A stretch of DNA of 64,000 nt, from assembly GCA_964489445.1 (NCBI GenBank), contig CAZAYU010000001.1, positions 74,717 through 138,716 on the forward strand. Direction: 5' to 3'. Each line of letters starts with the position of its first letter. The first letter of the stretch is position 1. The notes under the pieces are model-generated. The model saw nothing but the letters and a program-made list of their open reading frames with translations, ran no database searches and was not told the origin of the DNA. This document shows, piece by piece, positions 6,627 through 34,894 of the stretch. A program made the position numbers and the translations under genes. The stretch is from an uncultured Planctomycetia bacterium (GTDB taxonomy: Bacteria; Omnitrophota; Gorgyraeia; Duberdicusellales; 4484-171).

Positions 6627-6986
6627 GGGGGTGAACCGGATTCGACTCGAGGAGGATGTTTAAGGTCGCGTGCCGCGAGGGTAAGCCTTCCGCGTTAACG
6701 GGGCTTTCAAACAATAAACGCAACACCTTACGTTGCAGCACCTGCTTACGCACTTAGCTAAGTAGGCCCTTCATATTTTTTTCTCAGAGAATTTGAAGGT
6801 TCGGCTATGAGGATAGAGACAAATTCTTTTGCTTTAGGGAATTTGTCTTGAAATTACTTAAAGCTGCTTTCGGAAAAATCCGGCCTTACTGAGTTTTCCG
6901 AAAAAAGAATAAACTTAAGGATACGCATGTAGAAGCCTTAAGTTGAGACCTTGAGGACGCGGGTTCGATTCCCGCCACCTCCACCA
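6627..6986 (+). ncRNA. ssrA: tmRNA (SsrA), transfer-messenger RNA
   Basis: The 5' end 'GGGGTGAACCGGATTCGACTCGAGG' matches the conserved tmRNA 5' acceptor/D region (…GGATTCGAC…). The 3' end 'GGACGCGGGTTCGATTCCCGCCACCTCCACCA' is a T-arm plus acceptor with encoded CCA. An internal tag reading frame ends '…GCTTACGCACTTAGCTAA' (…AYALS*). Length is ~360 nt. Confidence 0.85.
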
Positions 6987-9182: not shown

Positions 9183-9578
9183 ATGACTGAAATCTATATT
9201 GACGGAGCATCAGCCGGAAACCCTGGTCAAACAGGAATTGGTTATGTAATTTACAAAAATGGCCAAATACTAAAAAAAGGGAATGCGTCTCTGGGCATAC
9301 AAACAAATAATTTTGCTGAATATATGGCTTTGATTTTTGCCCTTGCTGAACTACTCGGCACTGATGAAAAGTCCTGCGCAGTCTTTTCCGACAGCCAACT
9401 TTTATGCGAGCAGATTAACGGAAACTTTAAGGTTAAAAATCAGAATATTTATCCATTATTTATCTTAGCAAAAAAATTAATATCTAACCTAGATTCCTTT
9501 AAAATTTCACATATCCGTAGAGAAAAAAATGAGGAAGCAGATAAGCTGGCAAAGCAAGCTACTGGATTTTTGTTGTAA
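9183..9578 (+). CDS. rnhA: Ribonuclease H (RNase HI family, short form)
   Basis: 'IYIDGASAGNPGQTGIGYVI' (first catalytic Asp), 'NNFAEYMALIFAL' (Glu), 'FSDSQLLCEQ' (Asp). 131 aa. Confidence 0.7.
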   Translation: MTEIYIDGASAGNPGQTGIGYVIYKNGQILKKGNASLGIQTNNFAEYMALIFALAELLGTDEKSCAVFSDSQLLCEQINGNFKVKNQNIYPLFILAKKLISNLDSFKISHIRREKNEEADKLAKQATGFLL

Positions 9579-31139: not shown

Positions 31140-31949
31140 ATGAATAAAAATATTATCGCTGTATTAGCCCTAGGACTTTCTGGATTTGTTTTTTCTTTAT
31201 TGCTGGCTTTTTTAAGCAAAAAACTAAAAACAAAGACTGACCCACTGTTAGAAAGAATATTATCTTTACTTCCCGGAATTAATTGCGGAGCCTGTGGCTT
31301 TAGTGGGTGTACAGCTTTTGCTGAGGCAATAATAAAAGAAAAATCTATCTTTAAGGGTTGTCTGCCAGGAGGTAAAGCACTTAACGAAAAACTAGCCACT
31401 GAGTTAGGAATCGCCTCTGTAGATGCAAACAATAGAAATACTATAATCTGCCACTGCCAAGCAAATAGCAGCGAAAAGAAAGTATCTGCAGACTACCAAG
31501 GCCCTAAAACATGTGCTGCTGCTCAAGTAACTGGAGGAGCAATTAATTGCTCTTACGGATGTATTGGTTTCGGTGATTGTGTAGACAAATGTCCGGTTAA
31601 CGCAATAACTATCCATGACAAGGCAGTCCAAATTAACTACAAAAAGTGCATTGCTTGTGGACAATGTATCGCAGCATGTCCCAGAAATTTACTGGAAATT
31701 GTTTCGTATGCTGAAAATAATAATTATTTTATCGGATGCAACAATAAAAATAATGCACTTAAAGTTAAAAAAGTCTGCAGCCGTGGATGTATTGGTTGCG
31801 GAATTTGCACCCGCGGAAAAAATTCACCATACTACTTAAAAGAAAATCTTTCCTACATCGATAATCAAAAACTAAAAAACAATCAAGCAGCTCTTGAAGT
31901 CGGTAAAGAAAAATGTCCGACAAAATGCATAGTTAGCTTTAAGGTGTAA
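31140..31949 (+). CDS. rnfB: Rnf complex subunit B (polyferredoxin)
   Basis: N-terminal TM, then 'INCGACGFSGC'. There are multiple CxxCxxCxxxCP clusters ('CIGFGDCVDKCP', 'CIACGQCIAACP', 'CIGCGICTRG'). Confidence 0.85.
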   Translation: MNKNIIAVLALGLSGFVFSLLLAFLSKKLKTKTDPLLERILSLLPGINCGACGFSGCTAFAEAIIKEKSIFKGCLPGGKALNEKLATELGIASVDANNRNTIICHCQANSSEKKVSADYQGPKTCAAAQVTGGAINCSYGCIGFGDCVDKCPVNAITIHDKAVQINYKKCIACGQCIAACPRNLLEIVSYAENNNYFIGCNNKNNALKVKKVCSRGCIGCGICTRGKNSPYYLKENLSYIDNQKLKNNQAALEVGKEKCPTKCIVSFKV

Positions 31950-32200
31950 AGCACAGAGGGATAAATAAGGTTTAGGCTGAGGATAAGGCTACTATAGGGT
32001 TAAGGGGTAAGGATTAAGAGATAAGTGGGGGAAAGTGACGGACGATAGATGATGGAAGAGGGACGATGAATAAAAAACAAGGTTCAAGAATAAAGGTTAA
32101 AGGAAAAAGGACCGAAGAAGGACAAAACCGAATTGCCACCTTCAAGGTGGAAGATGGATAGCATAAAAAAATGTGTAAAAGAATCAAAGCGTAGATGCGT
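31950..32200 (+). repeat. Polypurine (GA-rich) tract of ~250 nt with degenerate GG(A/T)TAAG-type short repeats
   Basis: The + strand is almost entirely purine, e.g. 'GGGATAAATAAGG…GAGGATAAGG…GGTTAAGGGGTAAGGATTAAGAGATAAGTGGGGGAAAG…GGAAGAGGGACGATGAATAAAAAACAAGG…AAAGGAAAAAGGACCGAAGAAGGACAAAACCGAA'. The minus strand is correspondingly a CT-tract. It lies between rnfB and the fibre-protein gene. Confidence 0.6.
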
Positions 32201-32333
32201 AAAAGTGCGAATGTGAGCAAAAAATAAATATCATTCAGATAAAAAAGCATCTCCTATATGCGCATATGATTAACTCATTTAATTTGTTCGACTTATTTAA
32301 CATATTCACACATTTACGCATTAACTACTTAAC

Positions 32334-32342
32334 GGGGGGGGG
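32334..32342 (+). promoter_or_regulatory. Homopolymeric G9 tract overlapping the ribosome-binding region of the fibre-protein gene. Candidate slipped-strand phase-variation switch.
   Basis: 'AACGGGGGGGGGAAAAATG'. The nine Gs end 5 nt before the ATG at 32347. A G9 run is compositionally exceptional in this AT-rich window. Confidence 0.5.
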
Positions 32343-32346
32343 AAAA

Positions 32347-33903
32347 ATGAAAAAAAGTGCTTTAAAGTCCGTTTGCTTAAGCGTATTTCTTTTATTGTGT
32401 TTGATATACATTCCGTTGTTTGCTCAAGAAATAGATGATAGCGCTGAAACAATAACCCTAGTTACTTATTATCCAGCACCGATTGGTGTATATAGTGATC
32501 TGAGAGCTAAAAAAATGGCTATTGGTGAAGAGTATTACAATCCAGAAACTCATTGTTTTGATGACGGAACAGGAAATTGTGATCCTACGGAACAAGCAGT
32601 GATACCATCAGAAGCAGATTTAGTAGTGCAAGGTAATGTGGGTATTGGGACGACGAGTCCAGTTGAGATGTTGCATATAGAGAACAACCATGACGATAAT
32701 ACCGAAATAGTAATTGGAAATAATTCTAATACTGCCCATGCATCTGTCGGCATCCGAGCAAGATCTGCGGATTCTGAGATTTCTATAGGAGCCCTGCCAA
32801 GTAATAATACCAACTACCCTTTTTGTGCTGATCGTGCTTTTATAATGAGCGGCGTAGCTTCGCTTGGATTGCTTGATACGGCTGGTCTTAGTCTTGGCGC
32901 CACAAAAAGCGATGCTGATATGCGTTTTTATACCGGAGGTTATGCAGTGGCCAATGAACGCATAAGAATTGATTCAAGCGGCAATGTAGGAATTGGGACT
33001 ACAGATCCCAAAGCGCAGCTCCATGTTAATAGCGATACAACTCAAGGAATGGTTAGTATTTCCGGGGTTTCAGATAGTAGCTCTACTTATTCTGCACTTT
33101 ATTTACATGATGATAGCGCAGATAATGATAGCAATTGGGTCTTAGCTCACAAAAACATGCAAGGCGCTGCTGGCGAAAATGATTTTTGGATTGGCTACTG
33201 GGAAAATTCAAGCAGTATGCATACCAATTTTGTAATTGATAGTGAAACTGGAAATGTAGGGATTGGCACCACAAATCCAGAAGCAACATTAGATGTTTAC
33301 ACAGGTCCAGTATATATTGGAAGAGATAGCGGTGGAAAGCCCGGCATGACCTTAGGAGAATCTTCTGCTGTTGGTACTAAACCGGACATTAGATTTGACG
33401 CACAAGGGCTAATCGCCGCTTACAGCAACATTTTTATTAACATCGATTCCGACAATAACAAAGCTAACAACGGAATATATTTTATGCATGATGCTGATAC
33501 AATAGCTGGAGAAACTATTGCTTACATAGTAGAAAACGGTAACATGTGGCTAAAAGGTACCTTAGAAGAAAATTCAGATATTCGCCTTAAAAAAAATATC
33601 CACAGTGTAGACTCTTCCTTAACACAAATTGCAAAAATGAACCCGGTAACTTTTGAATGGAAAAATCCAGGATATCCTTCCGGCAGGCAAATCGGTTTAA
33701 TAGCCCAAGAAATAGAGACTATCTATCCGGAAGTAGTATCTACAAATCAGGAAACAGGATATAAATCTATCGCGTATACAAAGTTAATCCCGATTCTAAT
33801 ACAAGCAGTAAAAGAACTTTCAACAGAAAATGATTTTTTTAAAAAAGAACTAGAAAAACAAAATGAAAACATAAAAAATATTGAACAAAAAATGAATAAA
33901 TAA
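32347..33903 (+). CDS. Secreted fibre / tail-fibre-like protein with a C-terminal intramolecular-chaperone autoprocessing domain (peptidase S74 / endosialidase-chaperone type)
   Basis: Signal peptide 'MKKSALKSVCLSVFLLLCLIYIPLFAQE'. Three spaced repeats: 'GNVGIGTTSP', 'GNVGIGTTDP', 'GNVGIGTTNP'. The C-terminus 'NSDIRLKKNIHSVDSSLTQIAKMNPVTFEWKNPGYPSGRQIGLIAQEIETIYPEVVS…GYKSIAYTKLIPILIQAVKEL' matches the S↓D-x-RLK…GLIAQEV…PE(A/V)V chaperone domain that self-cleaves in phage tail spikes. The start follows the ORF-track internal Met, not the upstream Met at 32266. Confidence 0.7.
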   Translation: MKKSALKSVCLSVFLLLCLIYIPLFAQEIDDSAETITLVTYYPAPIGVYSDLRAKKMAIGEEYYNPETHCFDDGTGNCDPTEQAVIPSEADLVVQGNVGIGTTSPVEMLHIENNHDDNTEIVIGNNSNTAHASVGIRARSADSEISIGALPSNNTNYPFCADRAFIMSGVASLGLLDTAGLSLGATKSDADMRFYTGGYAVANERIRIDSSGNVGIGTTDPKAQLHVNSDTTQGMVSISGVSDSSSTYSALYLHDDSADNDSNWVLAHKNMQGAAGENDFWIGYWENSSSMHTNFVIDSETGNVGIGTTNPEATLDVYTGPVYIGRDSGGKPGMTLGESSAVGTKPDIRFDAQGLIAAYSNIFINIDSDNNKANNGIYFMHDADTIAGETIAYIVENGNMWLKGTLEENSDIRLKKNIHSVDSSLTQIAKMNPVTFEWKNPGYPSGRQIGLIAQEIETIYPEVVSTNQETGYKSIAYTKLIPILIQAVKELSTENDFFKKELEKQNENIKNIEQKMNK

Positions 33904-33905
33904 AA

Positions 33906-34298
33906 ATGTTTACCAAGGCTGTTACAGTAGAGGAAGTAATCGGTGATAAAGTAAGAATTCGGTTTACAAAGCAAAAAACCTGCGGATGCTGCCGAATGTT
34001 TTCACTTTGTGGAGGAAATAACGAAACAATGACTATTGACAATCCTGGCTTAGACATTCAAAAAGAAAACTTATTGGAAATTAATATTGATGAACAAAAA
34101 AGTTATCTAGCTGGAATAATTACATTTCTCTTGCCTAGTTCTATTTTTATAGCCGGCTTAATAGCATTTAAAGACAGGGGAGAGATGAATAGCTTCTTGT
34201 TATCATCATTAATAGTTTTTGCTTACTTTATTATTGTAAAGATTGGCTTAAGAAAATACGGAAAACACTTCACCATAAAAATAAACAGAAAATTATGA
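33906..34298 (+). CDS. RseC/MucC-family small membrane protein (SoxR-reducing-system / Fe-S associated), putative
   Basis: 130 aa. The architecture matches RseC: an N-terminal β-strand 'AVTVEEVIGDKVRIRF', a cysteine cluster 'CGCCRMFSLCGG', then two TM helices. Its stop overlaps the purN start (ATGA). Confidence 0.5.
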   Translation: MFTKAVTVEEVIGDKVRIRFTKQKTCGCCRMFSLCGGNNETMTIDNPGLDIQKENLLEINIDEQKSYLAGIITFLLPSSIFIAGLIAFKDRGEMNSFLLSSLIVFAYFIIVKIGLRKYGKHFTIKINRKL

Positions 34299-34894
34299 AT
34301 ATTGCTGTTCTAGCCTCTGGTAACGGAAGTAACTTCGAAGCATTGGTTAAATATTTAAAATCAGCCAAAATAGACGCTAAGATAAACTTATTAGTTGTTG
34401 ATAAAAAAAATGCATTTGTCCGCACCCGGGCAAAAAAACTAAAAATTAAGGAATTACTTATCGACCAGAGAAAATTTCCTACTCGTATTGCCTTTGAGAA
34501 AGAAATTGCCGGACATCTTCAAAAAGAACAAATTGATTTGGTAGTCCTAGCCGGATATATGCGGATAATTTCTTCGTACTTCATTAAACAATTTAAAAAC
34601 AAAATCATCAATATTCATCCAGCACTCTTGCCAGCATTCAGAGGAAGAGATGCAATCAAAAGAGCATTTAATCACGGATCTAAGGTAAGCGGGGTAACTA
34701 TTCATTTTGTTGATGAACAAATTGATCACGGACCAATCATCCTCCAGGAAAGCATAGAGATTCCAAAAAACATAACCCTAAAAAAATTTGAAGCAAAAAT
34801 TCACGCCTTAGAGCATAAACTATTACCTCAAGCAATAAAACTATTCAGTGAAAAAAAAGTACGATTATTCGAAAAGAAAGTTAAGATTACCTAG
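34295..34894 (+). CDS. purN: Phosphoribosylglycinamide formyltransferase
   Basis: 'IAVLASGNGSNFEAL', 'NIHPALLPAFRG', 'SGVTIHFVDEQIDHGPII'. Confidence 0.9.
   Translation: MNIAVLASGNGSNFEALVKYLKSAKIDAKINLLVVDKKNAFVRTRAKKLKIKELLIDQRKFPTRIAFEKEIAGHLQKEQIDLVVLAGYMRIISSYFIKQFKNKIINIHPALLPAFRGRDAIKRAFNHGSKVSGVTIHFVDEQIDHGPIILQESIEIPKNITLKKFEAKIHALEHKLLPQAIKLFSEKKVRLFEKKVKIT

Follow-up and report, generated by a model that had tools for sequence, protein, structure and literature searches.

A purine-rich non-coding tract upstream of a fibre gene in the rnf operon of an uncultured Omnitrophota bacterium

The nearest described analogue of the element that forms the subject of this work, viz. a purine-rich tract between rnfB and a gene for a fibre protein, is provided by the TAACTGA heptamer direct repeats, which are found in intergenic regions of Beggiatoaceae, Cyanobacteria and Bacteroidetes, and for which a translational or post-transcriptional role, with S1, Csp or CsrA-type proteins as the binders, has been proposed but not proven (MacGregor 2015, PMC4679880). 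The tract described here is located in a 64,000-nucleotide (nt) stretch of DNA, referred to below as the window, from an uncultured bacterium which is named in GenBank as a Planctomycetia bacterium and is placed by GTDB within the Omnitrophota (assembly GCA_964489445.1, contig CAZAYU010000001.1, positions 74,717 to 138,716 of the forward strand). Positions given without a locus name are those of the window, and loci from other assemblies are designated by an L and a number. The cyanobacterial STRR heptamers are a further kind of intergenic repeat. In the contingency gene families vlp and vsa of Mycoplasma, conserved 5' regions are common to paralogous genes for surface proteins. The termination factor Rho loads on RNA that is C-rich, G-poor and unstructured, and untranslated spacers of 200-400 nt normally invite hairpins or Rho-dependent termination. 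The results presented below establish that the tract is a real, statistically outstanding and non-coding feature of this genome, with homologous copies upstream of a second fibre gene and in a related organism.

Composition and repeats of the tract

The stop codon of rnfB is at 31949 and directly after it the plus strand is rich in purines for about 300 nt, i.e. to about position 32250, with 70-78% purine in each 50-nt bin. The first-pass annotation of this DNA had described the region as almost pure A+G over about 250 nt. Of this description, the skew after the rnfB stop codon is correct but the purity is not, as positions 31950-32200 are 73.3% purine (A 107, G 77, T 43, C 24), with about 27% pyrimidine, and the uninterrupted purine runs in the tract are at most 13 nt long, whereas other parts of the window have runs as long as 20 nt. 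The tract proper (31950-32160, plus strand) does not code for protein, has a homologue in the spacer that precedes the second fibre gene, and contains 74% purine, 9.5% C and 32% G. It is the highest purine peak of the 64 kb at all scanning lengths from 100 to 300 nt (for 250 nt, a maximum of 0.744 compared with a window mean of 0.532 and a standard deviation of 0.055), it is the sole intergenic region of the window with a purine fraction above 0.6, and among the 637 tiles of the 64 kb the lowest C content (about 10%) is that of the tile containing the tract. The genome is compact, and none of the few other long spacers in the 64-kb window resembles the tract. The earlier statement that nothing similar occurs elsewhere in the 64 kb is thus upheld by the purine scan, by the survey of intergenic regions and by a blastn search of the window with the tract; when all of the fetched loci were included in this search, no copies were found beyond those in L263-L265.

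The repeat character of the tract is most evident in its 5' part, where, 17 nt past the rnfB stop codon, an in-phase hexanucleotide array with the units AAGGTT TAGGCT GAGGAT AAGGCT is present (31967-31990, plus strand), the end of which is 357 nt from the ATG of the fibre gene. No other in-phase (NAGGNT)x4 array is present on either strand of the window, and no such array was obtained in composition-matched shuffles of the tract (0/20000). Further, the sequence RAGGWT occurs 5 times in the tract compared with an expectation of 0.35, and GGA occurs 12 times where about 4 are expected. A second set of units, viz. the decayed 7/14-nt repeats AGGGTTA AGGGGTA AGGATTA AGAGATA (31996-32025, plus strand; Tandem Repeats Finder scores 32-39), is alignable in part with the copy in L263. 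As Tandem Repeats Finder reports weak 7/14-nt arrays only for the tract as a whole (scores 32-45), the array is to be regarded as decayed. The in-phase, head-to-tail arrangement of its units nevertheless goes beyond what composition accounts for, which is the mark of a short tandem repeat (microsatellite), and the related sequence in L013 has arrays of 5 and 4 units. All of the motifs quoted in the first-pass annotation are found in the tract, and both the shuffles and the excess of RAGGWT indicate that its repeat character is genuine.

The strand asymmetry of the tract, and the occurrence of GG at a spacing of 6 nt in the hexamer array, could be taken to indicate that this DNA adopts a non-B structure, viz. 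H-DNA (triplex), as was suggested earlier, or a G-quadruplex formed from the regularly spaced GG. However, H-DNA requires a mirror repeat made up of purines only and unbroken over at least about 15 nt, whereas the purine runs here are shorter than this (and than others in the window), are interrupted every few bases and form no mirror repeat, and the runs of three or more G are too distant for a canonical quadruplex. A triplex is thus unlikely, and a non-B structure of either type is highly improbable.

It is likewise extremely improbable that the region codes for a small protein. An open reading frame (ORF) of 31 amino acids (aa) is present at 32066-32161 on the plus strand, with the upstream SD-like site GGAAGAGGGA as its possible ribosome-binding site, and it is called by some of the JGI annotation pipelines; a second candidate is a low-complexity ORF of 78 aa on the minus strand (32014-32250). 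However, both the start codon and the frame of the 31-aa ORF are missing in L263 and L013, and a tblastn search finds its peptide in contigs of the identical strain only, while the 78-aa ORF has no Pfam match and its frame is broken by indels in the paralogous copy, among them one of 43 nt. Neither ORF has a counterpart in the two homologous tracts, and the lengths of the indels are not divisible by three. Both ORFs were rejected, in agreement with the earlier judgement that no ORF here is credible and that the longer one is an artefact.

A structured non-coding RNA, which had also been considered for this region, finds no support in folding or in family searches. The minimum free energy (MFE) of the tract is no better than that of shuffled sequences (z of -0.68 for the plus strand and -0.45 for the minus strand), and Rfam searches of the window and of both homologous tracts, at the gathering score as well as at E up to 10, gave nothing relevant. 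At the latter limit, the best match overlapping 31950-32160 was of 11.4 bits (ZEB2_AS1_3), and matches elsewhere in 31800-32450 reached 23.3 bits compared with a threshold of 76.1 bits. The tile containing the tract is among the least foldable of the window (MFE rank 1 of 637 for the minus strand; GC-adjusted z of +2.2 for the plus strand), and it is the one most densely occupied by Shine-Dalgarno (SD)-like sites of -5 kcal/mol or stronger, of which there are 14 per 250 nt compared with a mean of 3.0 (standard deviation 2.3); the organism itself uses the canonical SD sequences AAGGAGG/AAGGGGG. A scan of 31700-32500 gave 0 terminator-like sites, and no sigma-70 promoter was flagged inside the tract; the earlier idea of a transcriptional insulator, if of the terminator type, is thus not supported for the interval between rnfB and the fibre gene.

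Homologous tracts and the insertion in the rnf operon

The gene rnfB (31140-31949, plus strand; Pfam FeS and Fer4 domains) is the last gene of rnfCDGEAB. Its homologues, which are named RnfB of Candidatus Omnitrophota, place the window in this group, the nearest relative being 76% identical and the next at most 58%; a search of contigs of GTDB representative genomes with RnfB found no close relative, but only matches of at most 50% identity to Fer4 domains. In three other lineages of Omnitrophota, rseC-purN comes immediately after rnfB, the two overlapping by 8 nt in one lineage and by 1 nt in another and being 89 nt apart in the third, whereas here 1956 nt (31950-33905), consisting of the tract and the fibre gene, separate rnfB from rseC. 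Due to this, the tract together with the fibre gene constitutes a lineage-specific insertion in the operon. The fibre gene (32347-33903, plus strand) specifies a secreted protein of 518 aa with a signal peptide, an N-terminal part of 66 aa in common with its paralogue, and a Peptidase_S74 C-terminus; the ATG at 32347, rather than position 32266, is its most likely start as the signal peptide follows it. The displaced genes rseC and purN (33906-34894, plus strand) come next, with the start of rseC only 2 nt past the stop codon of the fibre gene. The identities of rnfB and of the fibre gene, as assigned previously, are confirmed by these Pfam results.

A second paralogue of the fibre gene, encoding the protein P0141 (316 aa, PTL_trimer), is present in the same genome between kdsA and kdsD-kdsC-lptC-lptB of the operon for 3-deoxy-D-manno-octulosonate (KDO) and lipopolysaccharide (LPS) transport. 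This paralogous locus was obtained as L263 4809-5951 (JGI 3300022882 Ga0222626_1000019), where its Pfam neighbours are DAHP_synth_1 and SIS/CBS genes. The fibre genes of this genome thus sit inside housekeeping operons, in the orders rnfB-fibre-rseC-purN and kdsA-fibre2-kdsD, and the unit is present at least twice. The first 66 residues of the two proteins, comprising the signal peptide and a TLVTYYPAPIG domain, are about 80% identical (53/66), after which the identity drops to about 30-40%; the corresponding 66 codons show 80% DNA identity and 17 synonymous differences. The similarity extends upstream, as the tract in the window has a homologue in the spacer of about 190 nt before the P0141 gene (L263 4809-5000), in which purines make up 72% and C 11% of the bases. 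In L263 the hexamer array begins right after the kdsA stop codon and is followed by a conserved block (block A), the site of a 43-nt indel, a second conserved block (block B), 40 nt and the start codon. The indel corresponds to a purine-rich stretch present in the window copy only (32071-32113, plus strand, from the alignment), and as its length is not a multiple of 3, no reading frame can be common to the two copies. The homology between the tract and L263 stops at 32160, and in the window copy an extra 186 nt of AT-rich sequence lies between block B and the start codon. The earlier proposal of a long 5' leader or upstream element fits these observations, as the tract belongs with the fibre gene and not with rnfB.

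An orthologous copy of the tract is present in L013, the contig with the RnfB protein that is 76% identical. The hexamer tract at the 3' end of rnfB is cleaner in this case and begins within the last codons of rnfB; it is 74% purine and 5.6% C, and contains AAGGAT/AAGGTT/GAGGTT hexamer blocks (AAGGWT/GAGGTT arrays) and AAGTCCGAAGTCC units, in addition to GAAAACGACGGAAGAGGGA, the core of block A and the base of a stem-loop (CACCUA/UAGGUG), with the contig terminating in AAGGTTAAGGTTAAG. In all three tracts, viz. those of the window, L263 and L013, the purine content is 72-74%, the C content is 6-11% and NAGGNT occurs at 7-14x background. The tract is therefore not confined to a single strain, the outcome which would have spoken for a chance insertion, and conserved counterparts of both the orthologous and the paralogous kind exist. 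Other searches for copies were negative: a 30-mer from block B had 0 matches in viral contigs, an 18-mer of the hexamer pattern gave chance-level matches in viral contigs, mostly to sequences coding for (KD)n, a protein search with the 82-aa N-terminus of the fibre protein yielded no candidates, and no further fibre N-terminus is present in the 64-kb window.

Hexamers of the same type are widespread in metagenomes. A metagenome scan with the query AAGGWTAAGGWTRAGGWTRAGGWT matched at least 120 loci (L143-L262). About 46 of the matches listed are (AAGGAT)n, and 31 of these are inside long open frames coding for (KD)n repeats, which are irrelevant to the tract. A further 73 of the matches listed are of the AAGGTT/GAGGTT type, in contigs with 33-63% GC, and at least 46 of them are outside any long open frame. 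Among the matches listed, these intergenic arrays are found within a few nt of gene ends, and in about a dozen cases an AAGGTT/GAGGTT array has a complementary (AACCTY)n arm 20-100 nt further on, so that long hairpins can form, sometimes with a run of T; examples of such arrays are L256 930-1010, L252 282-420 and L246 1637-1760. The 5' part of the tract belongs to this AAGGTT/GAGGTT kind of intergenic repeat, with the window copy having the purine arm only. No association with the fibre, RnfB or RseC proteins was found by tblastn searches of the 120 listed hexamer-array loci. Such intergenic arrays are somewhat unusual, and in a literature search on hexamer strings and on tail fibres of Omnitrophota nothing specific was found, nor any description of a (RAGGTT)n repeat class.

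These results bear directly on the possibility that the tract is neutral simple-sequence debris, i.e. what is left of a (NAGGNT)n microsatellite prone to slippage, which arrived together with the inserted fibre gene. Only blocks A and B, if anything, would then be functional, and the composition as such would have no effect. In keeping with it, the three copies can be aligned outside the blocks by composition only and differ by large indels (43 nt and 14 nt), perfect (RAGGTT)n arrays are common in the unrelated metagenome contigs described above, where among the matches listed they occur in both orientations relative to genes, and sequence of this type is found at or close to the points where the contigs L013 and L266 break. 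However, the composition has been kept within the narrow limits given above in all three copies, two of which have diverged by the 17 synonymous changes in the 66 neighbouring codons, and the strand asymmetry would be expected to fade if a pure repeat were decaying by random mutation; in addition, long spacers are scarce in this compact genome and no other is of this kind. We regard debris as a possible, if somewhat doubtful, explanation of the tract, and as the main rival of the reading favoured below.

Conserved blocks and a possible role of the module

Two short segments of the tract stand out from the rest by their conservation. Block A, GACGGACGATAGATGATGGAAGAGGGACGAT (32037-32067, plus strand), contains a direct repeat of GGACGAT at 32040-32046 and 32061-32067, i.e. 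with a spacing of 21 nt, and over GAYGGACGATAGATGAYGGAAGAGGGACGA it is identical to L263 4893-4919 at 26/27 positions (96%). Its core ACGGAAGAGGGA is present in L013 as well, the consensus being GAYGGACGAT..GGAAGAGGGACGA, and no RNA structure is predicted for it. Block B, AAAACCGAATTGCCACCTTCAAGGTGGAAGATGGATA (32124-32160, plus strand), which contains CCGAATTGCCACCTTCAAGGTGGAAGATGG, is identical in the paralogous locus at 37/37 positions. As the neighbouring codons are only 80% identical between the two copies, the blocks should be either constrained at the nucleotide level or locally converted. Within block B, the palindrome CCACCTT-C-AAGGTGG (32136-32150, plus strand; CCACCU..AGGUGG in RNA) is predicted to fold as a 6-bp stem, with A-rich sequence on its 3' side. 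In L013, a further hairpin of 25 nt (z of -3.2) lies within the stem base CACCUA/UAGGUG, and the halves of the palindrome are hence 25 nt apart compared with 1 nt in the window copy, a spacing which speaks for a hairpin rather than for the operator of a dimeric protein. The sequence TTTTTAATCT comes after this hairpin on the minus strand of L013, the only strand that looks terminator-like. The repetition of block B also has a bearing on assembly. Three independently assembled Logan contigs (L004, L008 and L009) all end at position 32153 of the window, due to the fact that the 37-nt repeat is longer than the k of 31. With the breaks explained in this manner, an inversion or other variant at 32153 was rejected, and they provide indirect evidence that both copies of the module coexist in those samples.

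The conservation of the blocks beyond that of synonymous sites is also what would be expected of a regulatory region acting at the level of DNA, with block B as a promoter having the palindrome as its operator, block A as an activator site, and the hexamers as a protein-binding or curvature array. In L263, a sigma-70-like promoter sequence over block B, TTGCCA-18-GATAAT, scores 10/12 and lies about 30 nt before the start codon, with the palindrome within the promoter spacer, and the GGACGAT direct repeats of block A are two helical turns apart. However, one promoter-like match is the number expected from shuffles, and at the equivalent position in the window (32133-32162, plus strand), where the -35 TTGCCA and the 18-nt spacer overlap block B, the -10 is degraded and the sigma-70 scan did not flag this copy: it reads GATAGC because the homology to L263 stops at 32160. 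Further, block B in the window is 187 nt from the ATG, the half-site spacing in L013 is tolerable for a hairpin but not for a dimeric operator, and no regulator gene was found nearby. A DNA-level role of the region is thus on the whole unlikely.

The tract is best described as a conserved module of non-coding DNA that precedes the gene in a surface-fibre unit specific to this lineage. The module consists of decayed in-phase (NAGGNT)n repeats starting just past the upstream stop codon, with blocks A and B embedded in them. Its insertion, its duplication, its composition, the conservation of its blocks and its lack of coding potential and of structure are shown by the results above, while transcription, the avoidance of Rho, the retention of ribosomes and the role of the blocks are inferred. 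The reading of its function which we tentatively favour is that of a transcribed, unstructured and Rho-proof spacer, derived from hexamers and rich in SD-like sites, in which the two constrained blocks serve to control the fibre gene. As neither rnfB nor kdsA is followed by a terminator, and as the fibre gene is succeeded at once by the displaced genes, read-through from the upstream operon is proposed as the simplest reading, and the operon transcript would run through the tract into the fibre gene. The RNA of the spacer would then be long, unable to fold, C-poor and dense in SD-like AAGG/GAGG/GGGG, and its sense strand would offer neither hairpins nor a C-rich, G-poor loading site for Rho; due to this, transcription could continue through about 400 untranslated nt to the fibre gene and the displaced genes. 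The dense SD-like sites could retain or load ribosomes, and blocks A and B may supply gene-specific control signals in the form of a promoter, a hairpin or a binding site.

A transcript of this kind could instead serve as a platform or sponge for an RNA-binding protein, either CsrA-like or of the type in which TRAP or HutP rings bind NAG triplets with spacers of 2-4 nt, with regulation of the fibre gene or titration of the protein as the outcome. The threefold excess of GGA, and the predicted single-stranded and hence accessible state of the RNA, are consistent with this, and AAGGAU matches the core of the CsrA motif from systematic evolution of ligands by exponential enrichment (SELEX), just as (NAG-GNU)n has the geometry of a TRAP site. 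However, Rfam gave no CsrB/Rsm match with the limit on E raised to 10, hairpin loops that could present the GGA motifs are lacking, the RNA being essentially without hairpins, and the most widespread hexamers, AAGGTT and GAGGTT, do not contain GGA. No CsrA, Hfq or TRAP homologue was found in the 64 kb, a result which is uninformative for the whole genome. We consider it very unlikely that the tract acts in this way.

Several observations weigh against the favoured reading of the tract as a transcribed spacer with control blocks. The position and the degraded -10 of block B in the window copy, together with the 186 extra nt before the start codon, imply that the blocks cannot act identically in both copies. 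Covariation, which had been recommended earlier as a check, is not seen in the block B stem, where the shared pairs are identical, and only three copies of the module are known. The more distant fibre homologues in L267 and L268 have no upstream purine tract, so that the tract is not required by the fibre family; for L266, 97 nt of upstream sequence only are available. The generic metagenome (RAGGTT)n arrays have, among the matches listed, no orientation bias to the flanking genes (12 ++ vs 10 --), and the hexamer part can therefore exist without a role in sense-strand RNA. The high density of SD-like sites and the low foldability are automatic consequences of a G+A-rich sequence, and transcription through the tract is assumed in the proposal.

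A more far-reaching proposal, which is quite unlikely, is that the purine-rich, C-poor, SD-like hexamer spacer serves as a portable "expression adaptor", by which a fibre cassette could be accommodated in an essential operon without polarity, with ribosomes and RNA polymerase kept engaged over several hundred untranslated nt, and that the (RAGGTT)n arrays represent an undescribed functional class of intergenic repeats. Should Rho evasion or ribosome retention prove to be true, they would provide a simple design rule for long untranslated spacers in operons. Members of the Omnitrophota are uncultured and have very small, possibly host-dependent cells, for which surface fibres are plausible contact organelles, and the presence of a fibre gene with a conserved non-coding module in both the rnf and the kds/lpt operons illustrates the way in which a compact genome takes up genes of this type and expresses them. 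Blocks A and B are two short, sharply conserved sequences that are testable as control elements.

Neighbouring features and relation to known systems

The AT-rich region between the tract and the fibre gene (32161-32346, plus strand), which has no counterpart in the L263 copy, is loosely similar to the 97 nt upstream of the fibre homologue in L266. It contains a pair of 21-nt inverted repeats (32195-32215 and 32301-32321), which are 86% complementary, flank 85 nt and could be a small invertible element or one resembling a miniature inverted-repeat transposable element (MITE). The best match to the anti-SD sequence in the region (-10.5 kcal/mol) is a run of 9 G at 32334-32342, which is separated by 4 nt from the ATG of the fibre gene and acts as an SD-like site for it; runs of G are also present upstream of the fibre homologues in L266 and L267. 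No variant indicative of an invertible or phase-variable switch was seen in six same-strain contigs (L001-L003 and L005-L007, which are assembled consensus sequences), all of them being identical over 31950-32349, inclusive of the 9-G run and the orientation. When 20 ORFs, either neighbouring or small, were compared with Pfam, all of the functions identified were of the housekeeping type, and genes for recombinases, regulators or mobile elements were not found nearby.

A few other observations were made in the course of this work. In L266 (1472-2625), a 96-aa ORF and then a bAvd gene (PF22296) lie after the gene for the fibre homologue P0179, in which the N-terminal domain is matched at 57% identity; this suggests that a diversity-generating retroelement targets this fibre family in a related organism. 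In the same-strain JGI contig L002 (3344-4269), rnfD is called as two ORFs (113 and 179 aa) rather than one of 308 aa, reflecting either a frameshift variant or an assembly error. In L013 (310-381), a tRNA gene and a 57-aa ORF are directly upstream of rnfA, the place expected for rnfE, and the rnf operon may be rearranged in this lineage. Elsewhere in the window, 6627-6986 encodes a transfer-messenger RNA (tmRNA) whose tag peptide ATPYVAAPAYALS ends in ALS and not in the common ALAA, and 9183-9578 encodes a stand-alone RNase H/RVT_3 domain protein of 131 aa, beside a zinc-ribbon protein and downstream of tRNA-Met and tRNA-Val genes.

In comparison with the known systems, the tract resembles the TAACTGA repeats in having short intergenic tandem units, a patchy phylogenetic distribution, a variable copy number and no coding role. 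However, its unit is the 6-nt, purine-rich NAGGNT, and its array, which has decayed and is joined to two conserved blocks of unique sequence, abuts the upstream stop codon at 190-380 nt from the next start, whereas the TAACTGA repeats are within a few nt of the start. As both unit and position differ, the tract is not a member of the TAACTGA or STRR repeats. With the vlp/vsa families of Mycoplasma it has in common that the fibre paralogues share their upstream DNA and signal-peptide coding region and diverge downstream, with a homopolymer run by the start; however, the two known fibre copies are in different operons and not clustered, the strain contigs covering the region show neither length variation of the G run nor inversion, and a recombinase gene is not found nearby. 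The many GGA/AGGA motifs in a non-coding tract of transcript size recall the sponge RNAs CsrB and RsmZ, from which the tract differs in its lack of an Rfam match, in the location of its motifs outside hairpin loops and in having no promoter/terminator pair of its own. The strand asymmetry of purines and pyrimidines is similarly shared with the homopurine mirror repeats of H-DNA, but the tract lacks mirror symmetry and its purine runs are broken at intervals of at most 13 nt. As regards the Rho utilisation (rut) sites, the setting is alike, for the tract is long, untranslated and unstructured, a situation in which Rho normally causes polarity. However, the composition of its sense strand is the opposite of that of a rut site, and this strand would be predicted to evade Rho, while the antisense strand looks like an ideal rut site; this comparison is drawn from composition and implies no membership in a family. 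The tract is best described as a variant of an intergenic leader or spacer derived from short tandem repeats.

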